Source of the DNA: Escherichia coli
Lineage (GTDB): Bacteria > Pseudomonadota > Gammaproteobacteria > Enterobacterales > Enterobacteriaceae
NCBI RefSeq assembly: GCF_965641715.1
Contig: NZ_OZ282453.1
DNA length: 64,000 nt
Strand: one strand, 5' to 3'
Below are positions 1 to 49,308 of this stretch, piece by piece. Every line of letters begins with the position of its first letter. Position 1 is the stretch's first letter. Made by a program: the position numbers and the translations under genes. The notes beneath the pieces were generated by a model. The model saw nothing but the letters and a program-made list of their open reading frames with translations, did no database searches and was not told the origin of the DNA.

Positions 1-164
1 CGTATAACACAGCAGCAGGCGGACGCTGCAGATGATTATTCTGCGGTGACATATATTCATCCCTGAAATGTATTAATGAAATAAACGATATTTTACGCGC
101 AATAAATGTTTGGCGCATTAGTTGTTTGAGCGAAAAATATCTGGAAAGCAGATCACAGTAAATA

Positions 165-200
165 AAAAAACCTGCTGGTGAGGCAGGTTCTTTTATTTAC
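165..200. terminator. Hairpin (7-bp stem AACCTGC/GCAGGTT) flanked by an A-run on one side and a T-rich tract on the other; possible bidirectional intrinsic terminator
   Basis: Seen in sequence: aaaaaaaCCTGCtggtgagGCAGGttcttttattt. Confidence 0.4.
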
Positions 201-482
201 TACTTTGATGTTAAGTTACTGATACTGCAACATGGCATCTCAACGAGCGAATTATAACCACCTCGCGACCGTGTTGCAATTAAGATAATGAGATTTATAA
301 TCCTGACTGTTGGGAAGTTGCGCCGGATCGAACCCATTTCAAGTCCTGGCTACCGGACGGGTGGTGCCGCAGGTAGTGCTCTGATCCGGAGTGCAACATG
401 GCGACTCAACATACGTAAACCAGTATCGACAGGCAGCGTAAGGGTAAGGTGCTGGTGTTGCGCTCCTTAATAAGGAGAGCGG

Positions 483-22644: not shown

Positions 22645-22778
22645 CAACCAAACGACTCGGGGTGCCCTTCTACGTGAAGGCTGAGAAATACCCGTATCAC
22701 CTGATCTGGATAATGCCAGCGTAGGGAAGTCACGGACCACCAGGTCATTGCTTCTTCACGTTATGGCAGGAGCAAACT
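22645..22778 (+). promoter_or_regulatory. TPP (THI-box) riboswitch leader of thiMD
   Basis: Sequence ggggtgcccttctacgtgaaggctgagaaatacccgtatcacctgatctggataatgccagcgtagggaa matches the classic thiM aptamer; lies immediately upstream of the thiM start. Confidence 0.8.
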
Positions 22779-30574: not shown

Positions 30575-30725
30575 TTATACGAACAACACCACCCCGTAGG
30601 ACGGATAAGGCGTTTACGCTGCATCCGGCAACCTATGCCTGATGCGACGCTGAAGCGTCTTATCATGCCTACACAGCGCTGCCACGTATGTTTACACTGC
30701 ATCCGGCATAAAATAACGCGCACTT
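30575..30725. repeat. REP/BIME-type palindromic units (several copies)
   Basis: Seen: gcctgatgcgacgctgaagcgtcttatcatgcctac and repeated gcatccggca motifs. Confidence 0.7.
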
Positions 30726-30822: not shown

Positions 30823-33022
<2,200 letters not shown>

Positions 33023-35205: not shown

Positions 35206-36246
35206 ATGAAATCAGTGGTGAATGATACTGATGGTATCGTGCGCGTTGCAGAAAGCGTCATTCCTGAAATTAAACATCAGGATGAGGTGCGGGTAAAAAT
35301 TGCCAGCTCGGGCTTATGTGGTTCCGATTTACCCAGGATATTTAAAAATGGTGCACATTATTATCCAATAACGTTAGGCCATGAATTTAGCGGCTATATT
35401 GATGCGGTAGGATCCGGTGTTGATGATTTACACCCTGGCGATGCGGTTGCCTGTGTGCCGTTATTACCCTGTTTTACTTGTCCAGAGTGTCTGAAAGGGT
35501 TTTATTCCCAGTGCGCAAAATATGATTTTATTGGCTCACGGCGTGATGGTGGATTTGCCGAATATATTGTCGTTAAGCGAAACAATGTCTTTGCACTACC
35601 TGCGGATATGCCTATTGAGGATGGGGCTTTTATTGAACCGATTACCGTTGGCCTGCATGCTTTTCATTTAGCGCAAGGTTGTGAGAATAAAAACGTTATT
35701 ATTATTGGTGCCGGAACCATTGGCCTGCTGGCCATTCAGTGCGCTGTCGCGCTGGGAGCAAAGAGTGTGACGGCGATCGACATTAGCTCAGAAAAACTGG
35801 CACTGGCAAAATCTTTCGGTGCGATGCAAACATTTAACAGTAGCGAAATGAGCGCGCCGCAAATGCAGGGCGTTTTACGCGAGCTGCGCTTTAATCAGCT
35901 TATCCTCGAGACGGCTGGCGTACCGCAAACTGTGGAACTGGCGGTAGAGATTGCCGGTCCTCATGCCCAACTGGCGCTGGTGGGGACGTTGCATCAGGAT
36001 CTGCATTTAACATCGGCAACGTTTGGCAAAATATTGCGTAAAGAGCTGACGGTTATCGGCAGTTGGATGAACTACTCCAGCCCTTGGCCTGGGCAGGAGT
36101 GGGAAACGGCGAGCCGGTTGCTGACAGAACGTAAGTTAAGCCTGGAGCCATTAATCGCTCACCGTGGAAGCTTTGAATGCTTCGCCCAGGCGGTGCGTGA
36201 CATCGCTCGTAATGCTATGCCGGGCAAAGTGTTGCTCATTCCCTGA
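35206..36246 (+). CDS. gatD: Galactitol-1-phosphate 5-dehydrogenase (Zn-dependent MDR family)
   Basis: 346 aa; zinc-ADH motifs (GHEFSGYI, structural Cys cluster CFTCPECL). Confidence 0.9.
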   Translation: MKSVVNDTDGIVRVAESVIPEIKHQDEVRVKIASSGLCGSDLPRIFKNGAHYYPITLGHEFSGYIDAVGSGVDDLHPGDAVACVPLLPCFTCPECLKGFYSQCAKYDFIGSRRDGGFAEYIVVKRNNVFALPADMPIEDGAFIEPITVGLHAFHLAQGCENKNVIIIGAGTIGLLAIQCAVALGAKSVTAIDISSEKLALAKSFGAMQTFNSSEMSAPQMQGVLRELRFNQLILETAGVPQTVELAVEIAGPHAQLALVGTLHQDLHLTSATFGKILRKELTVIGSWMNYSSPWPGQEWETASRLLTERKLSLEPLIAHRGSFECFAQAVRDIARNAMPGKVLLIP

Positions 36247-36345
36247 AACCGCGGGCCAGCGTGATGCTGGCCCGGTATTGTGCAAAACAGATCATTCACC
36301 AATGGTCCCCCTTCGTTTACACTAGCCACAATTGAATATGGGTAA

Positions 36346-37125
36346 ATGACGATGAATTCATTCGAGCGAAGGAATAAGATCATCCAATTAGTGAATGAAC
36401 AGGGAACCGTGCTTGTTCAGGATCTGGCGGGAGTATTTGCTGCCTCGGAAGCGACAATCCGTGCCGATTTGCGCTTTCTCGAACAAAAAGGCGTGGTTAC
36501 GCGCTTTCATGGCGGTGCGGCGAAAATAATGTCCGGTAATAGTGAAACCGAGACCCAGGAAGTCGGGTTTAAAGAGCGATTTCAGCTCGCCAGCGCGCCA
36601 AAAAACAGAATAGCGCAGGCGGCAGTCAAAATGATCCACGAAGGGATGACCGTTATTCTCGACAGCGGAAGTACGACAATGCTTATCGCCGAAGGATTAA
36701 TGACCGCCAAAAATATCACGGTGATTACCAACAGTCTCCCGGCAGCGTTTGCCCTTTCCGAAAATAAAGACATTACTCTGGTCGTCTGCGGTGGCACGGT
36801 CCGCCATAAAACGCGCTCGATGCATGGTTCCATTGCCGAGCGTTCATTGCAGGATATTAATGCCGATTTAATGTTTGTCGGTGCTGATGGTATTGATGCG
36901 GTTAATGGTATTACGACCTTTAATGAAGGTTATTCGATTAGCGGGGCGATGGTCACCGCCGCTAATAAAGTGATTGCCGTTCTCGATTCATCGAAATTTA
37001 ACCGTCGCGGTTTTAATCAGGTACTGCCAATCGAAAAAATCGACATTATTATTACCGACGATGCTGTGTCAGAGGTGGATAAACTGGCATTGCAGAAGAC
37101 ACGGGTGAAATTAATTACGGTGTAG
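36346..37125 (+). CDS. gatR: DeoR-family repressor of the gat operon, uninterrupted
   Basis: 259-aa ORF with N-terminal HTH and DeoR C-terminal domain; no IS element interrupts it here. Confidence 0.85.
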   Translation: MTMNSFERRNKIIQLVNEQGTVLVQDLAGVFAASEATIRADLRFLEQKGVVTRFHGGAAKIMSGNSETETQEVGFKERFQLASAPKNRIAQAAVKMIHEGMTVILDSGSTTMLIAEGLMTAKNITVITNSLPAAFALSENKDITLVVCGGTVRHKTRSMHGSIAERSLQDINADLMFVGADGIDAVNGITTFNEGYSISGAMVTAANKVIAVLDSSKFNRRGFNQVLPIEKIDIIITDDAVSEVDKLALQKTRVKLITV

Positions 37126-37129
37126 TATT

Positions 37130-37200
37130 GTTCTGTATGCCGGATAAGGTATTTACACCGCATCCGGCATTACGGATTCTCCCTGGTTCAAGAGAGAATA
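37130..37200. repeat. REP-like palindromic element
   Basis: Seen: tgccggataaggtatttacaccgcatccggca. Confidence 0.55.
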
Positions 37201-37206
37201 GTTTGA

Positions 37207-38106
37207 TTAACGCAATAATGGACAATCTGGTGGTAATCGACAACGCAACGCCGCCGGAAGTATTTCAATATGGAAGTTTTGCCCACTCAACGGTTCGCCA
37301 TCAAGATTAAAAGTGATTTCGTGTGGGGCTTGTATATCAAACCACGACGAAGCGCCTTCGATAATATTCGGGTTATCTTCGTCAGATTTTAAGGTTGATA
37401 CGAGAGCCGGAAGAATTTCATCGCCGGTAAAAATGCGCAGTTGCAGCAAGCCATCGTTAATTAACGCGTTCGGACACAATTGCTGACCGCCACCGGCCTG
37501 ACGCCCGTTACCAATACCAATGACCAGGGCGTCACCTTGCCAGTGAAAGTTTTCACCGCGGATTTCACAACGGTCCGGTTGCAGAGTATCCATGCGCATT
37601 AAGCCATGAATGATGTAAGAGACGCCACCCAGCGCGGCTTTTAATTTTTCCGGCGTTTCTGTGGTAATACGTGTCCCAAACCCGCCTGTCGCCATATTAA
37701 TAAAACAGGTTTGTTTGTTGACCTGCGCCATATCTATCGCAATGGCGTTACCGGCAATTGCCAGTTTCAGCGCCTTATCCAGTGCCTCAGGAATCCCTAC
37801 ACTGGTGGCAAAATCATTGGCGGTTCCTAATGGCAAAATTCCCAGCGCGGGTATGTTATCCCCCTCACACTGAATCAACGCCGTAGAAACTTCATTAATG
37901 GTGCCATCGCCACCACCGGCAATCACCGTTGCGACGCCCAACTTCCGGGCCTCCTCTACATATCGTGCGGCATCGCCTTTCTCCCAGGTGACCCGCACAT
38001 GGATCGTCATTCCTTCCTCACGCAACAGCATAATTGCTTCGCGCAATGGTAAATTGTCAGTACTTTTGCCATTAAGAATCAGTAAGCTGGCGGGAAATTC
38101 TGCCAT
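37207..38106 (-). CDS. yegS: Lipid kinase YegS (DAGK catalytic-domain family)
   Basis: 299 aa; N-terminus [15 protein letters not shown]; GGDGT motif. Confidence 0.9.
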
Positions 38107-38519
38107 GATCGTATGTGCCTTTATGATTGGTCTGTAGATAGTGTAGAGCAGAAAAGAAAAGGTGGAGTCAGAACAGGATGAAAGTCGGAGGATAAAAAGT
38201 CAGTTCAAGTATGGGGGATTCAGTGGTTACCACCAGGAGCTTGCAATGGGAACAGCGAATATTAACGGTAGCCACCGATAAATTTCAAAAAAGAGCATAT
38301 GCCTAATATTCAACCAAACAGTGGCATCTTAAATATACTATTCCAAATATATTAAAGCCCCCATGGAGTTACCCGGAAGGGCCTCCATGTCCGTAATTCC
38401 TACTTATGTAGGAAATGTTGTACAGAACATTTATTATAATCCTATTCAAATATAATAATCAGCCATTATTATATTTAAACACTAGAGAGTGTCGTTGGTA
38501 TTTAATGGGGAAAGGTGAG

Positions 38520-38837
38520 ATGAAAAAGATAGCTGCTATATCATTAATTAGTATTTTTATTATGTCTGGTTGTGCTGTGCATAATGATGAGACAAGTATC
38601 GGTAAATTTGGTCTTGCATATAAAAGTAATATTCAGCGTAAACTCGATAACCAATACTACACCGAAGCCGAAGCTTCTTTAGCCAGGGGCAGAATATCTG
38701 GTGCAGAAAATATAGTAAAAAATGATGCAGCCCATTTCTGTGTTACTCAGGGCAAAAAAATGCAGATAGTTGACCTGAAGACAGAAGGTGCAGGATTACA
38801 TGGCGTCGCTCGTCTGACATTCAAATGTGGAGAGTGA
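38520..38837 (+). CDS. yegR: Small lipoprotein YegR-like (105 aa)
   Basis: MKKIAAISLISIFIMSGC lipobox; AT-rich; start chosen at the internal ATG of the track ORF. Confidence 0.6.
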   Translation: MKKIAAISLISIFIMSGCAVHNDETSIGKFGLAYKSNIQRKLDNQYYTEAEASLARGRISGAENIVKNDAAHFCVTQGKKMQIVDLKTEGAGLHGVARLTFKCGE

Positions 38838-38995
38838 GAATATTTTTTGGTAAGCGTCAAACATGCGCGTTCTGGTTGTGCTTAGCCGGAACCTGTGCGA
38901 GCACGATGCCAATAAGTGAAAGGCATCGTGCTATGAAGGGAGATTCTATCGATGTGGTCAATGGAAGACGGTGACCAGGGATAGGGCTTATGCAT

Positions 38996-39022
38996 AAAAA
39001 ATAAGCCCGTGTAAGGGCGTTT
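38996..39022. other. P2-type integrase core/attachment sequence (prophage boundary on the int side)
   Basis: Seen: aaaaaataagcccgtgtaaggg, matching the P2 att core AAAAAATAAGCCCGTGTAAGGG as I recall it; lies about 80 bp from the int stop. Confidence 0.65.
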
Positions 39023-39101
39023 ATATACCCTTACAACAGGGGCTTTCAGCGGTGCAATGCGGGTTTGCGCGGCACGCAAGACCACTGAAAGCCATAATAA
39101 A

Positions 39102-40115
39102 CTACCCTACTGTGGACACTGTGTGGACACTCTGAGAGCCAACACCACCACGTAGAGGATTAAGCGTTATCGCGTCCTGTAGGTACTCAGGGGCGAAGTG
39201 CGCATATGTCATTGTCTGCTCAATTCTTGAATGCCCAAGTATTCTCTGAAGCGTGATAATGTTGCCTCCGTTTATCATAAAGTGCGTGGCGAAGCTGTGC
39301 CGCAATGCGTGCGTAGCCTGACCCGGTGGTAGGTCGGGTTTCAGCTCCTTCATTAGCCGTCTGAACGCGGGATAGTTAGCATCAGTGAACAGATAGCCAC
39401 GCTTACCCGTTGTGATCATTGTTGCCAGTTCCTCGGATATAGGAACGGTTCGCGGCTTGTTGGTTTTTGTCTTAACGAAAGTGACGCGATTTTGAATGAT
39501 ATTTTCCGCTTTCAGTTTTGCTGCCTCACTCCATCTCGCGCCGGTGCTAAGGCAAAGAATCGCAATTTTTTTATTATCACCGTCCACTTTTGACAGCAGA
39601 AGCGCGATCTCCTCTTGCGTCAGGTAGCCGGTTTCTGGCTTATCCTCTTTGAGTCTTTTAAGACCTCGGAAAGGATGCTCCCCGAAAAATAGCTCCGCAT
39701 CTATCAACGCGGTAAACATCCCGCTAAGACACGTTAAATCACGATTTATACTCGATGGCTTGATGCCTTGAGAACGCCGCACAGTGCTGTATTGGCTTAT
39801 CAATGACTTAGTAATCTGAAAGGCACAAGGGTCACTGGTTATCTTTGTGAACAACTCTAACTTGCCCAGGTAATCTCGGCCGTGAGTTTCATACTTGCCT
39901 TTCAGCTCCCACCAGATTTTTGTTAGCTCTGACAGATGCCGCTTATCTGTCGGTTTCGCCAACCATTTTTTGTTGTGATGGTTGTACTGGGTATGCTTCT
40001 CGAAAGCGATAGCTTCGCTTTTCTTGTCAAATTTCCTGCGGATGCGCTTTCCGTTGCGCCCTGCAGGTCTAATGTCCACTTCATAACGACCATCATCGAG
40101 CTTTTTAACAGACAT
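39102..40115 (-). CDS. int: P2-type tyrosine integrase
   Basis: About 337 aa from MSVKKLDDGRYEVDIRPAGRNGKRIRRKF; C-terminal catalytic motifs HALRHSFATHF and LGHSRIEQTMTYAHF. Confidence 0.9.
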   Translation of the reverse strand: MSVKKLDDGRYEVDIRPAGRNGKRIRRKFDKKSEAIAFEKHTQYNHHNKKWLAKPTDKRHLSELTKIWWELKGKYETHGRDYLGKLELFTKITSDPCAFQITKSLISQYSTVRRSQGIKPSSINRDLTCLSGMFTALIDAELFFGEHPFRGLKRLKEDKPETGYLTQEEIALLLSKVDGDNKKIAILCLSTGARWSEAAKLKAENIIQNRVTFVKTKTNKPRTVPISEELATMITTGKRGYLFTDANYPAFRRLMKELKPDLPPGQATHALRHSFATHFMINGGNIITLQRILGHSRIEQTMTYAHFAPEYLQDAITLNPLRGGVGSQSVHTVSTVG

Positions 40116-40211
40116 AAAGCCTCCCGATGATGTTACTGCGTACTTCAATTTCCTGATTTAAATAACAAAAACTCACCGTGCATTTACTGCACAGATAAGC
40201 ACCGTAAATGG

Positions 40212-40508
40212 TTAGCCAGTTTTCTGGTCTGAGTGGGGTGACGTTGTTGTCTGCTGCCCAAAGTGCGCGAGAGCCGGTGCAATCTGCCCAGCTTCTGGTG
40301 ATATCGTCTCAGTCATGAACCACATGGTATATTTTTTGAACTGTGGATGATTCAAAATCTTCATCACTGCTTGTATGCCCATATCTTTTACTCCCTTCTC
40401 ATAACTAGAAAGAGAGCTATACGGAACTCCAGTTAAGTCACTGAATTCTTTTCTATTCATACGTTCCGACTCACGCATGATGGCCAGCTTCTCGTTGACG
40501 GGTATCAT
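40212..40508 (-). CDS. C: Immunity repressor C (HTH)
   Basis: About 98 aa from MIPVNEKLAIMRESERMNRKEFSDLTGVPYSSLSSYEKG; divergent from cox. Confidence 0.75.
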   Translation of the reverse strand: MIPVNEKLAIMRESERMNRKEFSDLTGVPYSSLSSYEKGVKDMGIQAVMKILNHPQFKKYTMWFMTETISPEAGQIAPALAHFGQQTTTSPHSDQKTG

Positions 40509-40591
40509 CGTAATTAACACTCCACTATTGATAGAAAAACGATAACGGAGTAATCTTCGCTTCGTTACCGCAGATTTATGGCTCCAATATG

Positions 40592-40621
40592 GCAATTAAA
40601 AGCCATTAGGAGCAATTAAAA
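40592..40621. promoter_or_regulatory. Direct repeats GCAATTAAAA x2 spaced 20 bp in the C-cox switch region; candidate C operator half-sites around the early promoter
   Basis: Seen in sequence; P2 C repressor is known to bind direct repeats flanking the early promoter -35 (recalled). Confidence 0.4.
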
Positions 40622-40643
40622 CACTAACGAGGAATAGTCACAA

Positions 40644-40919
40644 ATGAATAGGGTCATTGAGAGCGCGAGCGACGCGGTTCCGTATCAGGAGTTTGCGCGT
40701 CTTATTGGTAAAACCCCTGCTGCTGTCAAAGGGATGATTGAGAAAGGCAAACTACCGATAGTTGAGATGACTGATCCGCAGTCTACAAGTGGGAGAGCAG
40801 GGGAATACCGGGTATATCTGCCAGCATGGAACAAAGGCATGAAGATGGCCTATGACAGTCGCCCTAAAGAAATTCGTGATGGTTGGTTGATGTGGTTGGG
40901 ATTAGGTGAACCAGCATAA
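40644..40919 (+). CDS. cox: Cox excisionase/early-promoter repressor
   Basis: 91 aa; strongly P2 Cox-like by recollection (AVPYQEFARLIGKT...GRAGEYRVYLPAWN...IRDGWLMWLGLGEP). Confidence 0.85.
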   Translation: MNRVIESASDAVPYQEFARLIGKTPAAVKGMIEKGKLPIVEMTDPQSTSGRAGEYRVYLPAWNKGMKMAYDSRPKEIRDGWLMWLGLGEPA

Positions 40920-41100
40920 GGAGCCAGAAATGAAAGAGCCACGTTGTATAGCTCAGTTACTGCGTAACGAAAGTCCACGCCCGATGAAGTTCAACATCAC
41001 TCATGGTAAAGGGCGTAAAGGCATCATCATCCGCACTCGCAAGCCTGGATTTATTGCTATGGCTAAACGCTTTATGAAATCCCGAGGGATATCGTTATGA
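40906..41100 (+). CDS. Small early-operon ORF (64 aa), hypothetical
   Basis: Track ORF; position between cox and B as in P2. Confidence 0.4.
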   Translation: MNQHKEPEMKEPRCIAQLLRNESPRPMKFNITHGKGRKGIIIRTRKPGFIAMAKRFMKSRGISL

Positions 41101-41597
41101 CGGTTATGACTCTTGCATTAGTTCAAAAACAACCTGCAGCTCTACGCGTCGTTATAGGAAAGCATCTTGCGGAACCTCGCTGGCACGATACCTGTGATTT
41201 TTATAATCAGATGATGGAGCGTGACCGCTTGACTGTCTGTTTTCATGCTCGGTTAAAACAGCGTCACGCAGTAATGCGCTTTGAAGAAATGAATGATGTC
41301 GACCGCGAACGTCTGGCTTGTGCTATCGATGAGCTGCGCGCTGCTTTTTCAAAACGTCGTCAGGTTGGCGCAAGTGAATCTGCATATATTAGTTTTCTAA
41401 CGGTGGGTCAGCGCCGCTCTTTATTTCTACACGCGGGATTGAGTGAGGTCGAGTTCAATCAGCCTTACTGGCGCATTGACGAAGATGCTTGTTATTGGCG
41501 AGAGAAACTATTCCGCGCTTTGCGTGAGCTTTTTGGGTTATTTGAACACGCGCCAACGATATTAACCTCGGTAAAGCCTGAGCAGTATTTACATTAA
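41097..41597 (+). CDS. B: Replication protein B (helicase loader-like)
   Basis: 166 aa; same length and position as P2 gpB. Confidence 0.7.
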   Translation: MTVMTLALVQKQPAALRVVIGKHLAEPRWHDTCDFYNQMMERDRLTVCFHARLKQRHAVMRFEEMNDVDRERLACAIDELRAAFSKRRQVGASESAYISFLTVGQRRSLFLHAGLSEVEFNQPYWRIDEDACYWREKLFRALRELFGLFEHAPTILTSVKPEQYLH

Positions 41598-41645
41598 TTA
41601 ATCTGGATTCGTTTTATTACACGCCTTACTGCGTGGGGATTCCTT

Positions 41646-41882
41646 TTGTCTGGAGATAGGCAAATGCATAAACAAAATAAAGTGCCGACGTGTGTGCTCT
41701 CGGTACATCTGGCGCAAGCGTTGCGCGATGCGCAGCTCGATACCGCGACCCGTTTATCCTCTCATTTTGATCGCCTAATTGCGCACATCAGTAAGTTAGA
41801 ACTCAACCGCACCGAGATCATCGAGCTATTGGGGCAAGAGTCCGAAAAATTGCACAACTCAATTTTTCATTGTGCTTGCTAA
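41646..41882 (+). CDS. Small early ORF (78 aa), hypothetical
   Basis: Track ORF; P2 has small ORFs here. Confidence 0.4.
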   Translation: MSGDRQMHKQNKVPTCVLSVHLAQALRDAQLDTATRLSSHFDRLIAHISKLELNRTEIIELLGQESEKLHNSIFHCAC

Positions 41883-41904
41883 TCAATTTTAGAAGGAGAC
41901 AAAA

Positions 41905-42180
41905 ATGAGTATCCGTATCGAGATAAATCATCAGTATGTAGTTACAAGCGATCGCTACCAGTTCATTTTGCAGGAAAAGAAAGTGGCGACTGCTGGAAAA
42001 AATAAAGGTAGCGAATGGCTTGATACTGTCGGGTATTACCCGACGATTCAAAAACTGATTTCTGGTCTGGTACTACATGACCTTTTAAATGGCGGTGCTG
42101 ATAGTTTTGCGGCGTTGGGTGAGCAGGTCGAGCAGTTGGGACTGCAATGTCAGACCGCGTTTTGTGCTGATGGCCGTTGA
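41905..42180 (+). CDS. Small early ORF (91 aa), hypothetical
   Basis: Track ORF. Confidence 0.4.
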   Translation: MSIRIEINHQYVVTSDRYQFILQEKKVATAGKNKGSEWLDTVGYYPTIQKLISGLVLHDLLNGGADSFAALGEQVEQLGLQCQTAFCADGR

Positions 42181-45161: not shown

Positions 45162-45443
45162 CAAACGCCGCCGGTGCTGAAACTTGTTTTCAGTGCCAGC
45201 GGTGTTGAGCAACGAGCCCCGCGAGACGTTAGCCTGCACCGTAGAGACCACCCCCAACCGGCACGATTAAAGTCGGTTTTATTATGCAATTTTCCCACAA
45301 TTTCCCGGTTTTTTAGCCGTGCATGCAACAGGTGCATTTTTTTGCATACGTTGGGGATGCCTGTTCTGGCCGCGCGCCGCCAGAGCAGGCGCGGATCCAG
45401 AGTGGTCATGCAACTGCATTAAAAACGACCCATAAAGCGGGCA

Positions 45444-45462
45444 GGCGAGGCGGGGTAAGCGT
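45444..45462. other. Candidate cos (cohesive-end) site
   Basis: Seen: GGCGAGGCGGGGTAAGCGT; the first 12 nt match the P2/186 cohesive end GGCGAGGCGGGGAAAGCAC as I recall it; sits in a GC-rich, structured non-coding stretch. Confidence 0.5.
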
Positions 45463-45533
45463 TGCGCGCGCCTGTCAAAGATATTAAGATTGTCTCAAAA
45501 TCGATTGATTTTATTGAACTAATGGAGCTAGGA

Positions 45534-47090
45534 ATGATTAAGGGTATAGGTCTTCAAAACTTCAGGAGCTTTGTCAACAAAACGTTTATTGATTTAAAAC
45601 CAATTACAGTATTTGTTGGTAAGAACAGCAGTGGTAAAAGTTCCCTATTGCGCACATTTCCTTTACTTCGTCAATCTGTAGAAGAAAATACTACTGGCCC
45701 AATACTATGGTATGGGAGATATGTGGATTTTGGCGATTTTACAGATGTACTTTCCCGAAACTCTGAAAAAAAAGAAATTACGTTTAGTTTTTCACTCTCA
45801 ATTCCGCCAGAGGTTTCACAAAGATATACATATTATCGTTCTACTGATTTAGCAAAGCAACCAACAGATATTGAAGCAGAGTTAACTGTTTACTCTAAAG
45901 ATAAAAAAACAAAAACGAAAACGATTAAGCTTATATTGGCTGATTTAACAATATTTATTTCAATGGATGAGAGTAGTAATGTTAAATTACTCATTGAATC
46001 AGATGATAAAACAATAGAGCGTGATGGGATAATAGCTAAAAATCTTGGGCAGTTCATACCAAATCTAATTTTGAAGGGTAAGGAAGACAGTCCTCCTCCA
46101 AGCACATCATTCTATTTGAGACATTCTAGGCATGACAGGGCGTTAGAATTGTCATTTATTGATTCAGCGGCGAAATATATAAAGAAATATTTCCATACTA
46201 AATCTGATATAAATCAAGTGACAGAGGCATTCAAAAGAATTGGCTTTATACCCAAAGCGTACGCTAGTAAATTAGTTGCTTTTCTATTTAAGGAACAAAA
46301 AGTTTTTAGTAGAAACTTTGAATTTCAACATGATGAAATAATGAATGAGTTATATCCATTTATAATTGGATGGAATATTAATAATCTTATAGATATAATA
46401 AATACATCCTTGTCAGATTCATTCAGAAATGTAAAGTACATAGCTCCACTGCGTGCTACATCAGAAAGATTTTATCGTTTTCAAGATTTACAGGTTAATG
46501 AGATAGATCATACTGGTTCCAATCTTGCAATGCTTTTGAATTCATTAAGACCGGCTGATAAATCAAAATTTGAAGATTGGACAAAGTTAAATTTTGATTT
46601 CATTATCAAGGTTGAACAAAGTGGCTCTCACTTTGCAATTTTAATAAACACCGGTGAAAATAGTGAGAACTATAATGTTAGTGATATGGGGTTTGGTTAT
46701 TCTCAGGTTTTGCCGATAGTTACAGCCATTTGGCTTGAGACAGAACGTCGTGCTACCACGGTTAGAAAACCTATAACATTTATCATTGAGCAGCCAGAAT
46801 TGCATTTACATCCGTCATATCAGCATAATTTAGCAAGTATTTTTGCAAAAGTAGTAACTAAAGCAAAAGAAAATAATGTAGATTTGAAGATAATTTTTGA
46901 GACACATAGCCAGACCATGATTGAAGCACTTGGTGAATATATTGAGGAAAATGAAAGTCTTTCACAGGATGATATTTCAATACTGGTATTTGAAAAAGAT
47001 GATAAGCAGCAGACTATAGTTAAGAAATCTTATTTTGACGAGAATGGTTTCCTAAAAAATTGGCCGGTTGGCTTTTTCTCGGGTAAGTAG
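45534..47090 (+). CDS. Cargo gene 1: ABC/OLD-type (AAA_15/AAA_21-like) ATPase, about 518 aa
   Basis: Walker A GKNSSGKSS; Walker B/D-loop FIIEQPELHLHP; H-loop-like IFETHS; AT-rich; SD GGAG upstream of the ATG chosen at MIKGIGLQNFRSF. Confidence 0.75.
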   Translation: MIKGIGLQNFRSFVNKTFIDLKPITVFVGKNSSGKSSLLRTFPLLRQSVEENTTGPILWYGRYVDFGDFTDVLSRNSEKKEITFSFSLSIPPEVSQRYTYYRSTDLAKQPTDIEAELTVYSKDKKTKTKTIKLILADLTIFISMDESSNVKLLIESDDKTIERDGIIAKNLGQFIPNLILKGKEDSPPPSTSFYLRHSRHDRALELSFIDSAAKYIKKYFHTKSDINQVTEAFKRIGFIPKAYASKLVAFLFKEQKVFSRNFEFQHDEIMNELYPFIIGWNINNLIDIINTSLSDSFRNVKYIAPLRATSERFYRFQDLQVNEIDHTGSNLAMLLNSLRPADKSKFEDWTKLNFDFIIKVEQSGSHFAILINTGENSENYNVSDMGFGYSQVLPIVTAIWLETERRATTVRKPITFIIEQPELHLHPSYQHNLASIFAKVVTKAKENNVDLKIIFETHSQTMIEALGEYIEENESLSQDDISILVFEKDDKQQTIVKKSYFDENGFLKNWPVGFFSGK

Positions 47091-47092
47091 TT

Positions 47093-48205
47093 ATGTTGAT
47101 TAATATCGAAAATGCGACACCTGAGAAGGTGCTAAATAACTCATTTGCCATAGCGGTTGAAAATATACTTCGGGCATTCGCTGAACAAAAACACTTGGTT
47201 ATAGGGGCAAGGGTTTTTTTTAAAACTATTATCAATGATCAAAGCGGGCTTTATAGCCTTTCATCAAAAAGTTACGCGCAAGAGGCTTTGTCGGGTCTAA
47301 CAGAGTACTATGCTATCTTGGATCAGGTCTCATTTTATGTATCTGTCGACTTTAATATTAGTGATAAATCATTTAAATGGGTTCAGATCGGTGAATCTTT
47401 TAAATTTGTTTGTGGTCCATTGTATTTTAATGACTCGGCACAATTGCAAAAAACGAAAATAGTATGTGAAAATCCTTTGGATTCTGATTTTTTTAAGGTT
47501 ATAGCGGCTCATTATGCCGAAGGTATTAACTTATCTCGCTGCGAAATGGGTTTTATCGCTCTAAATGGCGGTGGGGGCAGTACTAAGGATATATTCGAGC
47601 GTGCAATTCAAAATAATGAGATAGTTTTTTGTATTGTGGATAATGACAAAAAACATCCTGGAGCCCCATTCGGAGGTACTTGCTCACATTTTTTGGGCTC
47701 ACAAATTACTCGCTCAGGTTTCGTGGAGATTTTAGATGTACATGAAATAGAATCTCTAGTTCCTTTATCGACAATTGAAGATGTATTAAGAAGTCAAAGT
47801 CAATTGCAACAAAAAGAAAAATCTCTCATTTTCTTTAAGCATCTTTGCTCCGTAGATGAATCAGTAAAATTTTATATTGACCATAAAAAAGGTTTTGATT
47901 TTAAAACAGCCCTTGAACTCGATCGAAAACATGGTGCATATTGGCGTCCGATATTAAAGAAGCTTGATATAAAATATGATTGTGAGTATATCGAATCAAA
48001 ACGTTGTAGCTGCAACGCTGCTTGTGTAAGTTATGATGGTTTTGGAGAGAATTTGCTCAGCAATACATTGAAATATATACAAAAGGGAAGTTTAAAAAAA
48101 TATAATCCTCACCTAACACCAGTGCTTTCTGATAAATGGTATAAGTTAGGTAAGAATTTCTTTAGTTGGAGTTGTGGTCCATATAAAAAAGCAAGGGTTG
48201 GTTAA
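47093..48205 (+). CDS. Cargo gene 2: 370-aa partner protein, possible TOPRIM/DUF4435-like effector with C-terminal Cys cluster
   Basis: ATG 2 nt after the cargo-1 stop; hydrophobic strand plus DxD (IVFCIVDNDKKHPG); CEYIESKRCSCNAAC cluster; AT-rich. Confidence 0.65.
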   Translation: MLINIENATPEKVLNNSFAIAVENILRAFAEQKHLVIGARVFFKTIINDQSGLYSLSSKSYAQEALSGLTEYYAILDQVSFYVSVDFNISDKSFKWVQIGESFKFVCGPLYFNDSAQLQKTKIVCENPLDSDFFKVIAAHYAEGINLSRCEMGFIALNGGGGSTKDIFERAIQNNEIVFCIVDNDKKHPGAPFGGTCSHFLGSQITRSGFVEILDVHEIESLVPLSTIEDVLRSQSQLQQKEKSLIFFKHLCSVDESVKFYIDHKKGFDFKTALELDRKHGAYWRPILKKLDIKYDCEYIESKRCSCNAACVSYDGFGENLLSNTLKYIQKGSLKKYNPHLTPVLSDKWYKLGKNFFSWSCGPYKKARVG

Positions 48206-48300: not shown

Positions 48301-49308
48301 TCAAAGTGAATATTTTTTAAATCTTATAACTTCCATTTCTAACCAGTTGTTTAGTTCTTTGAACCGTTCCTGTAAAGGAGTTAACTCATTTCGGACAAAC
48401 ACTTGTGCAGCTTTTACAACATCACCAAAACCGCCAACATTGTCAGGCATAATTCCCATCATTTGTGGTGGTACCCTATGAGCACTCAACAAATCTTCTG
48501 CACTAACCTTTTTGATATTGAAAAAATCATCTTTCGTGGCGACTTCACTCAACGGCACAATCTTGATGCCATCCGGTTTCCCGTTGGGCGCGTAGAAAAA
48601 CAGGTTTTTGAAATTCCCGAGTCCTTTTGAGTCGCGCATCGCGTTACGGAGAGATTCAACATCGGTGCTGCTCTGTGCCGCGTCGGTGACATACATGATG
48701 TACCCCGCATGTGCGCCATTCTGATAATACTTGCGGCGAAACAGGGTAGCGGATTCATTCAGCCAGGCGGAATTAAGCGCGCTCAGGTATTCCGGCATCC
48801 CGTACAGCTCCTGATTGATATCGGGCTCAAGCAGGTGACACACAGAACCGGGGGCGAACGGGTGCGGCTGGGTGTAGCTCGACACGTACCAGTAAACGCC
48901 ATCTTCGACACCCCGGCGGGTGTATTTGGCCGGTGAGGTTTCCAGTTTTAAGAGCTGGCCGGTGACGCTCATGCGCTTCTCAAGATAGCCGTTGGCAAAA
49001 ACCAGATAATCAAGCACAAGGCGACTGAAATCCTGACGTGACAGCAACGGGTGCGGGATATAGGTGCTCGTCAGAATGTTACGTTTCACGTAAATCGGCG
49101 AGCTGTGATGGACGGCGGCGCGCAGGCTTTTTGCCAGTCCCGAGAAATTGACCGGCGGCTCGTACCATTTCCCGTTATTGATACACTCTACGTAGTCGAG
49201 GATGTCGCGGCGATCCAGAACGGGAGAAGGCTCACCAAAGGTGAACGCCTCCATTTTTTGCGGTGCGCTGGCGGTCATTGTGGCGGGTTTCTTCTGTCGT
49301 TTTTTCAT
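48301..49308 (-). CDS. Q: Portal protein (gpQ)
   Basis: 335 aa; position and length as P2 Q; divergent from the capsid operon. Confidence 0.85.
   Translation of the reverse strand: MKKRQKKPATMTASAPQKMEAFTFGEPSPVLDRRDILDYVECINNGKWYEPPVNFSGLAKSLRAAVHHSSPIYVKRNILTSTYIPHPLLSRQDFSRLVLDYLVFANGYLEKRMSVTGQLLKLETSPAKYTRRGVEDGVYWYVSSYTQPHPFAPGSVCHLLEPDINQELYGMPEYLSALNSAWLNESATLFRRKYYQNGAHAGYIMYVTDAAQSSTDVESLRNAMRDSKGLGNFKNLFFYAPNGKPDGIKIVPLSEVATKDDFFNIKKVSAEDLLSAHRVPPQMMGIMPDNVGGFGDVVKAAQVFVRNELTPLQERFKELNNWLEMEVIRFKKYSL

Follow-up and report, generated by a model that had tools for sequence, protein, structure and literature searches.

A species-wide palindrome beside the P2 attachment site of Escherichia coli lies within an apparent fossil prophage end

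The small RNA gene cyaR is an insertion site of phage P2, and E. coli K-12 retains there a cryptic P2 remnant that comprises ogrK and the D' pseudogene yegZ (PMC3032704). In the P2 reference record, the attP core is flanked by an Int P arm, an IHF site, a Cox site and a P' arm. The attachment site in the cyaR terminator is the classical P2 site locI. The Int arm-type boxes of P2 follow the consensus tgTGGaCa and usually occur as direct repeats (PMC3448106). The ogr/F operon of P2-like phages ends in a Rho-independent terminator, a GC-containing hairpin placed just upstream of the string TCGATGTGG. Perfect palindromes can reportedly arise through quasi-palindrome correction by intramolecular template switching, said to have been described by Ripley in 1982 and by Dutra and Lovett in 2006. 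On the RNA side, Rho-terminated mRNAs can carry protective 3' stem-loops that are stable, free of a U-tract and located a few dozen nucleotides past the stop codon (Dar and Sorek 2018, PMC6061677). Here we compare with these systems a hairpin that lies next to the P2-type attachment core in a 64,000-nucleotide stretch of E. coli DNA (the window), in which the following features frame the locus.

37207-38106, minus strand: yegS (ORF list and RefSeq E. coli annotation).
38520-38837, plus strand: yegR, a small lipoprotein-like host gene (ORF list; name from RefSeq E. coli; relatives carry PF27694 YegR).
38996-39017, minus strand: att core, the 3' end of cyaR with its terminator and U-tract, AAAAAATAAGCCCGTGTAAGGG, with one match in the window.
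39041-39093, no strand assigned: inverted TGAAAGCC-type boxes on the phage side, corresponding to the Cox-binding region of P2 attP (inverted repeats and motif matches).
39102-40148, minus strand: integrase of the resident P2-type prophage (Pfam Int_N, 2.5e-24; Phage_integrase, 4.4e-22).
39111-39132, plus strand: P' arm with two direct Int arm-type repeats, TGTGGACACTG and TGTGGACACTC (direct-repeat search; consensus of PMC3448106).
40644-40919: Cox protein of the resident prophage (Pfam PF10743, 4.5e-40).
45300-45462, plus strand: cos of the resident prophage with its 186-type right flank; the cos sequence GGCGAGGCGGGGTAAGCGT lies at 45444-45462, with 2 mismatches.

The core is the crossover site of P2-type phages, and the same string is annotated as the attP core in the P2 reference record. 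On the phage side, the two arm-type repeats at 39111-39132 read TGTGGACACT(G/C), a block identical to that in the P' arm of P2, and an HTH repressor is also found by Pfam among the prophage genes beyond the integrase. Strains with an empty site have yegR, 63 nt, the hairpin, 66 nt and then, on the opposite strand, the 3' end of CyaR, for which the Rfam model scores 100.7 bits and ends inside the core. The hairpin is thus host chromosomal DNA, which forms the bacterial arm of attL when a P2-type prophage occupies the cyaR terminator, and in empty sites it falls between the convergent genes yegR and cyaR. Its placement between yegR and the core agrees with the first-pass annotation of this DNA, the yegR stop being at 38837 and the core at 38996-39017; the distance from the stop to the start of the hairpin is 63 nt.

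The hairpin itself is a perfect inverted repeat, AGCACGATGCC-AATAAGTGAAA-GGCATCGTGCT, at 38900-38932. An inverted-repeat search found the arms to be 100% complementary with 11 nt between them, so the perfect 11-bp stem had been recognized correctly, and at the right locus; its coordinates, given as 38901-38937, began one base late and ended five bases too far. The parts are as follows.

38900-38910, no strand assigned: 5' arm, AGCACGATGCC (inverted-repeat search).
38911-38921, no strand assigned: loop, AATAAGTGAAA in the window (alignment and haplotype tables).
38922-38932, no strand assigned: 3' arm, GGCATCGTGCT (inverted-repeat search).
38933-38948, no strand assigned: 16-nt spacer from the hairpin to the P-arm fossil described below, ATGAAGGGAGATTCTA, without a T-run.

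Seven of the 11 stem pairs are G-C, and the loop has 11 nt. Folded as RNA in a 53-nt context, the hairpin reaches -23.8 kcal/mol on the plus strand, which is the yegR-sense strand, and -22.0 kcal/mol on the minus strand (z about -6; 0 of 200 shuffles equally stable), and as single-stranded DNA it reaches -13.3 and -13.2 kcal/mol (z -6.0 and -6.4). The stability extends to the 145-nt spacer as a whole, whose RNA fold beats its shuffles somewhat more clearly on the plus strand (z -4.7) than on the minus strand (z -4.1). When perfect hairpins with arms of at least 11 bp and loops of 3-20 nt were counted, a dinucleotide shuffle of 64 kb contained 0.37 of them on average and 50 of 200 shuffles contained at least one. 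A hairpin of this kind is therefore not rare by chance in a sequence of this length, and the case for anything beyond chance rests on conservation and context.

The 157-nt spacer is present, in one copy each, in 5415 of the 5426 complete E. coli genomes searched. The 33-nt hairpin was matched in 5109 genomes, with 214 identical matches, 1561 at 95-99% identity (one mismatch in 33 nt) and 3316 at 90-95% (two or three mismatches), and in an alignment of representative genomes the differences lay in the loop while the arms were identical. The first five or six loop bases vary among E. coli, with GATAAGTGAAA and GTTACGTGAAA as the common loops and the AATAAG type of the window as a rare one, and the 3' GTGAAA of the loop is invariant. 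For a sample not conditioned on the hairpin, metagenome contigs were scanned for an invariant 29-mer to the right of it. Of the 89 spacers aligned, 79 come from metagenome contigs, nine from genome or MAG loci picked by hand and one from the window; the stem is perfect in 79 of the 89, has one G.U pair on the plus strand in nine and has an A.C mismatch in one. The 81 sites that were classified comprise 53 empty sites, 26 with a prophage and two with the K-12 remnant; the hairpin occurs in all three classes, with perfect stems in 47 of 53 empty and 23 of 26 occupied sites. Conservation with and without a prophage had been proposed as a check on the hairpin, and no class of site was found to lack it. 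The hairpin is a real, species-wide, single-copy palindrome in E. coli.

The variants that do occur in the stem are few.

38909 C>T and 38908 G>A: variants in the 5' arm (haplotype tables).
38931 C>T and 38927 C>T: variants in the 3' arm (haplotype tables).

The three commoner ones (38909, 38931 and 38927 C>T) retain G.U pairing on the yegR-sense strand, and 38908 G>A, which creates the A.C mismatch, is rare. All are single transitions; no compensatory double substitution was found in the stem across the spacers examined. Mean heterozygosity is 0.012 and 0.006 in the two arms, compared with 0.10 in the loop and a range of 0.03-0.10 over the rest of the spacer. This lower polymorphism of the arms relative to their surroundings leans towards constraint without reaching statistical significance, for polymorphic sites (3 of 22 in the stem versus 4 of 11 in the loop; Fisher p about 0.15) as for deep-split sites (0 of 22 versus 10 of 106; p about 0.11). 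Variation concentrated in the loop, together with G.U pairs kept on the yegR-sense strand, is what would be expected if the stem-loop were a selected RNA element of the yegR 3' UTR, which might define or protect a 3' end after Rho-dependent or leaky termination or, in an alternative role, limit read-through antisense into cyaR and yegQ. We regard such selection as unlikely. The contrasts in polymorphism are not significant, and the strand bias of the stem variants (three of four sites, p about 0.3) is not significant either and may reflect a C>T mutation bias. The persistence of a perfect stem, moreover, needs no selection, since 22 neutral positions would not have had time to decay within the age of E. 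coli as a species.

The DNA on the two sides of the hairpin resembles two different parts of a phage end.

38842-38890, plus strand: fossil cos flank from the right terminus of a 186-type phage (local and multi-phage alignment).
38949-38994, plus strand: fossil of the P arm of P2 attP (P2 record annotation, alignment and motif match).

To the right, the local alignment to P2 scores 38, against a mean of 12.7 and a maximum of 24 in shuffles (0 of 2000 as good); the significant alignment covers 38949-38978 only, and a looser one continues to 38994. Up to the core, the spacer sequence is TCGATGTGGTCAATGGAAGACGGTGACCAGGGATAGGGCTTATGCAT and that of P2 is TCGATGTGGTCAATGTGTGGACGTGACCAGAAATAAATCC...TTGTACGT, and the P2 stretch that matches is the annotated Int P arm with its IHF site. 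The block TCGATGTGGTCAATG is identical to P2 at 15 of 15 positions and GTGACCAG at 8 of 8. The first arm-type box, TGTGGTCA at 38953-38960, is intact and the second has decayed, with GGAAGACG in place of TGTGGACG; a 16-nt deletion in the IHF region is present in most E. coli, and the lineages L191 and L298 retain more of this region. Compared with the P arm in the attP or attR of P2, the block order is the same, the distance to the core is nearly the same and one tgTGGaCa-type box is present, but the E. coli sequence lies on the bacterial side of an empty site and the hairpin is not part of the arm.

We recovered 22 genuine P2-like arms from IMG/VR, all of which contain the 15-mer block TCGATGTGGTCAATG. 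In 20 of them, 0-3 nt separate TCGATGTGG from a GC-rich terminator hairpin with its T-run; the remaining two have an interrupted T-rich tail of 7 nt. The E. coli hairpin resembles these ogr/F terminators in position, just upstream of the arm. It differs from them in having no T-run, in its 16-nt spacer as against 0-7 nt and in its loop of 11 nt as against 4-8 nt, and no sequence similarity to the 22 phage terminators inspected was found.

To the left, the spacer shows 78% identity in alignment to a stretch of the phage 186 right end that lies some 60-110 nt from cos; the score is 43, against a mean of 16.8 and a maximum of 26 in shuffles (0 of 2000). The aligned part takes in most of an imperfect hairpin, hp1 (38865-38898), in which two G.U pairs are invariant and a frequent T/C variant at 38876 preserves pairing on the plus strand only. 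The corresponding modern sequence is the cos flank of the resident prophage, to which the spacer, unlike its comparison with phage 186, has no significant similarity. The E. coli spacer also lacks the 19-nt cohesive end of a 186-type (Eganvirus) cos flank, and the 186-type phages in turn have no 11-bp palindrome at the corresponding place.

A sister lineage carries a fuller version of the same arrangement. L005, a GTDB species representative labelled E. coli, has yegR nucleotides 90% identical to E. coli yegR and a spacer type that none of the 5426 complete E. coli genomes carries. In a search of a 2.3-Gb database, its spacer matches the last 64 nt of 186, SEN1, SW9, Midge, EtG and Yersinia Eganvirus phages at E=1e-3. 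Pairwise alignment gives 78% identity to the cos flank over 81 nt and, directly beside it, 84% identity to P2 att over 74 nt. L005 retains the cos-proximal CCCA-TTAAG-TGGG hairpin of a segment that reads ..TCATGCAACTGCATTAAAACCGACCCATAAAGCGGGCA|cos, followed by a decayed 19-nt cohesive end that matches at 11 of 19 positions (AAAGATGTTGAGGAAGCGC versus GGCGAGGCGGGGAAAGCAC). It is the sole outgroup lineage obtained: many divergent clusters found through YegR relatives turned out to be error-ridden assemblies or frameshifted ordinary E. coli, and in the more distant relatives L007-L009 the DNA downstream is different and has no cos or att similarity.

By alignment, then, the spacer represents an older prophage end of the P2/186 family in fossil form. 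The transfer must have run from phage to host, because the arm boxes and the cos flank are common to several phage genera and functional there. When the spacer was compared by blastn with 50,697 phage records, two matched, both with the same host flank, and a search of IMG/VR for an extant cos next to a P arm (GGGGAAAGC-N(1-30)-ATGTGGTCAATG) gave one chance match, in a giant-virus MAG. As a separate observation, many prophage calls in IMG/VR begin at yegR, and one phage record annotates a gene over the spacer. Loss from the int side with the att-proximal end kept can be seen at the same locus today, in K-12 with its D'-ogrK remnant and in strain E308, where the deletion junction lies inside hp1, fused to a truncated baseplate gene. 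The K-12 remnant matches the older fossil in locus and mode of decay (PMC3032704), but it is younger, larger, strain-specific and annotated, whereas the older one is about 150 nt long, unannotated and shared by virtually the whole species, strains with an 'empty' site among them.

Between the two fossil pieces, the interval 38893-38948 is taken up by the hairpin and its 16-nt spacer. In this interval, L005 holds the cos-proximal segment and the decayed cohesive end, its homology to E. coli breaks off precisely where the 5' arm begins, and its fold is not unusually stable, with z=+0.3 and no strong hairpin. The E. coli block could accordingly be unrelated to the fossil, a short insertion or a de novo palindrome that hitch-hiked to fixation. 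The abrupt end of the L005 homology fits such an origin, as do the two host-flanked matches among the phage records and the lack of significant similarity to cos flanks or to L005: for 38893-38947 against cos flanks, the best ungapped match was 18 of 37 (p=0.29), and the local score against L005 had p=0.10. Its position, by contrast, favours continuity, since MAFFT places the block without gaps on the cos-proximal segment of seven phages and L005, at about 51-52% identity, and short strings are shared, ATGC at the end of the 5' arm and CATC and CGTG in the 3' arm. We consider an unrelated block distinctly improbable. Descent of the palindrome from the fossil we infer from position; three apparently 'compensatory' pair differences relative to a 6-bp inverted repeat of L005 were set aside, as their alignment register is statistically unsupported. 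With one outgroup, gain in E. coli is inseparable from loss in L005.

We next consider what the hairpin might do. No terminator-like site was found on either strand in 38300-39300. A U/T-tract is absent from the 0-2 nt after the stem, where the plus strand continues ATGAAGGG and the minus strand CGCACAGG, and the 11-nt loop departs from the intrinsic-terminator architecture of a GC-rich stem with a 3-8 nt loop. The earlier reading of the hairpin as having no U-tract on either strand, and as not being a canonical intrinsic terminator, is thereby borne out. Neither the gathering thresholds nor a permissive setting (E up to 1) gave an Rfam 15 match at the hairpin; the permissive scan of 36000-42000 returned only a partial naRNA4 at 37138-37173. 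A REP/BIME-like dispersed repeat was rejected, the arm sequence occurring in the window only at the hairpin and at a median of one place per genome. Two overlapping reading frames were rejected as well: a 49-aa ORF (38825-38974, plus strand) is disrupted by an extra segment of about 170 nt in B2-type strains, and a 67-aa ORF (38882-39085, minus strand) crosses the core into prophage DNA and so is impossible in empty sites.

A protein-binding palindrome acting at the DNA level, for P2 Int, IHF or Cox, for a terminase subunit recognizing a cos-derived motif or for a host regulator, has some attraction, in that the hairpin lies about 65 nt from the crossover core, beside the fossil arm-type box, and its conserved arms and variable centre are as expected of a dimer site. 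The motif searches speak against it. No TGTGGWCA occurs in 38900-38932, the matches being at 38953, 39111 and 39122, so that the nearest arm-type box, TGTGGTCA, lies outside the hairpin; no IHF consensus WATCAANNNNTTR occurs in 38838-39100, the nearest in the window being at 39798, inside int. Cox boxes follow a TTAAAGNCA-like consensus, and the P2 Cox region is an array of several. The invariant junction of the loop and the 3' arm, TGAAAGGCAT (38917-38926), does resemble the TGAAAGCC boxes of the Cox region, but instead of an array it offers a single TGAAAGGC (38917-38924), an 8-mer that occurs 15 times in the window. The cohesive end that terminase requires is absent from the spacer: a search for the 19-nt GGCG(A/T)GGCGGGGAAAGCA(C/T) with up to 3 mismatches found only the resident prophage cos at 45444. 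Half-sites of 11 bp with centres 22 bp apart would be unusual for a regulator, and the hairpin is equally conserved in prophage-free genomes. We therefore judge binding by any of these proteins very improbable. The IHF or Int site suggested by the first-pass annotation is not borne out for the hairpin, and its mention of an Int arm-type context applies to the DNA on the right, the degenerate P2 P arm, and not to the hairpin. What the hairpin occupies, in empty sites too, is a bacterial arm that itself appears to be an ancient P-arm and cos fossil.

Transcript data bear on the RNA reading. SMRT-Cappable-seq shows single-molecule reads over b2085|b2084|b2083. These loci are yegR through the yegZ pseudogene. 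Reads that cover yegR through yegZ must cross the hairpin. The K-12 Term-seq tables of Adams et al. 2021, in the passages covered (two of three cyaR occurrences), list no 3' end at the hairpin, the entries running from cyaR at 2167199(+) to gatD at 2171800(-) with nothing between. The mapping of RNA read ends, which had been named as a second check, places no terminus here; since yegR is barely expressed under the published conditions, the missing 3' end weighs only weakly against efficient termination at the hairpin. The stem-loop resembles the protective structures of Rho-terminated mRNAs in being stable, U-tract-free and a few dozen nucleotides past a stop codon, and differs from them in that no 3' end is mapped to it and reads pass through. 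The full pairing of hp1 on the plus strand only would suit an RNA element, as would the great stability of the stem-loop on the yegR-sense strand. Against it stand the absence of a U-tract, the reads that span yegR to yegZ and the sister lineage, which does without the hairpin; a yegR knockout, in addition, had no phenotype in chemostat growth (PMC3708739). A role as an RNA structural element is possible and unproven.

Taken together, these observations lead us to favour, as somewhat the more probable account, that the hairpin is a part, or an inherited by-product, of a fixed, ancient P2/186-family prophage scar, which folds in yegR read-through RNA and has no demonstrated function. The end of an older prophage of this family would have decayed beside the cyaR core, leaving the cos flank and the P arm, and the palindrome would have arisen in the E. 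coli lineage during the decay of this scar, perhaps by a deletion after which one arm was copied from the other, that is, by quasi-palindrome template switching. The homology break with L005 at the outer edge of an arm and the perfect complementarity of the arms are like quasi-palindrome correction as described, but here the event is deduced from two lineages, with no intermediate observed. All E. coli would then have inherited the palindrome. At the DNA level, with no signature of Int, of IHF or of multiple Cox boxes, it would be inert. In yegR read-through transcripts it would form a stem-loop of -20 to -24 kcal/mol, which would not terminate transcription because it has no U-tract and may at most act as a passive barrier to 3'-to-5' exonucleases. 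Where the hairpin lies, how widely it is conserved, the fossils on both sides and the missing signatures of a terminator or binding site are direct results; for the lack of a selected function, as for the palindrome's own origin, this account is an interpretation.

The hairpin alone matters little, and it illustrates that a striking perfect palindrome need not be functional. The spacer around it has wider implications. The 'empty' P2 site by cyaR in essentially all E. coli carries fossil phage DNA of about 150 nt, made up of a cos flank and an Int-binding arm, so that the 'empty' site looks like an attR and the attL looks like an attP. Repeated use and decay of the cyaR site would thus predate the diversification of the species. 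Moreover, a bacterial arm of attL that is phage-derived can mislead the calling of prophage boundaries and the prediction of att sites. More speculatively, locI might be, rather than a bare 27-bp core, a fossil attR whose arm-type box and palindrome still engage P2 recombination proteins, or the stem-loop might have been selected to control yegR read-through antisense into cyaR; we hold either to be a long shot. If locI does work as such a fossil attR, this would add to the strong preference of P2 for locI or to the directionality of excision, which may be affected since attL here resembles attP. No description of the fossil was found in the literature searched, a search to which the original locI papers are external, and we regard it as a modest but useful finding, unannotated until now. 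It gives a concrete and testable motive for asking whether P2 site choice is influenced by DNA beyond the core.

The stretch of host DNA between yegR and the att core, here called the fossil spacer, which comprises a 186-type cos-flank fossil and a P2 attP P-arm fossil (38949-38994), also turns up in phage and prophage records. In the deposited phage genome ON470606.1, a 'hypothetical protein' is annotated across the host spacer (32005-32139), and many IMG/VR prophage calls (contigs L111-L189) start at yegR, indicating that P2-like prophages are routinely credited, wrongly, with yegR and the fossil spacer. A 48-kb predicted viral contig (IMG/VR 2565956724_000008) carries the perfect 11-bp-stem hairpin of the bacterial arm of attL about 380 nt inside each end, in inverted orientation (L150 382-412; L151 4548-4578); the arrangement reflects either an artefact of assembly or a rearrangement of an unusual kind.

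Some E. coli retain, after the yegR stop codon and ahead of the fossil spacer, a remnant (~170 nt) of another small lipoprotein-like gene, the second at this place. The gene itself is whole in genomes labelled Cedecea or uncultured Enterobacteriaceae, where it stands immediately 3' of yegR with a proper terminator behind it. Its occurrences in the comparison loci, in their own coordinates, are:

L010 250-440, remnant, B2-type E. coli
L008 2822-3142, second small lipoprotein-like gene
L009 ~998-1330, second small lipoprotein-like gene

The yegS-yegR divergent intergenic region contains a perfect AT-rich palindrome, AAATATAATAAT-CAGCC-ATTATTATATTT (38448-38476), and on each strand promoter-like hexamers overlap it. 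The window holds 15 copies of the Cox-box-like 8-mer TGAAAGSC, versus 5.2 expected, with 5 of the 15 in the attL/int region (38917-39904), including one at the junction of the hairpin loop and 3' arm. Elsewhere in the window, Rfam matches were obtained for the following elements:

164-237, minus strand, OrzO-P antitoxin RNA
22648-22744, plus strand, TPP riboswitch
30599-30669, plus strand, full naRNA4/REP-type element
37138-37173, just 3' of gatR, partial naRNA4/REP-type element

The resident P2-type prophage carries a two-gene cargo directly after its cos, ahead of the likely portal gene (region 45444-48205):

45444-45462, cos, GGCGAGGCGGGGTAAGCGT
45462-47090, cargo gene 1, AAA_15/DUF3696 ATPase
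47093-48205, cargo gene 2
48301-49308, minus strand, likely portal gene, assigned by position only

PADLOC matched cargo gene 1 to NsnB (5e-55), PDC-M55A and AriA; cargo gene 2 gave a weak PDC-M55B match and no match in the Pfam search. The pair looks like cargo for defence against phages, carried at a P2 hotspot.

The spacer and hairpin also vary among lineages. Two E. coli lineages (L191 1630-1670; L298 3000-3045) have a longer P-arm fossil (GGGATCAATCC(G/T)TCT...), in which more of the P2 IHF-site region is kept than in the common spacer, and in the L298 lineage the hairpin is weakened by one A.C and one G.U pair (fold, -16.3 kcal/mol). In E. coli E308 (L190 2540-2640), a deletion junction (..GTGCGTAG joined to TCCGTCGG..) falls within hp1, the imperfect hairpin at 38865-38898 in the cos-flank fossil, where the spacer runs into a P2-like prophage's truncated baseplate J gene, with both the hairpin and attL gone. 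E308 is a present-day case in which a prophage at the yegR-cyaR locus has decayed from the int side.
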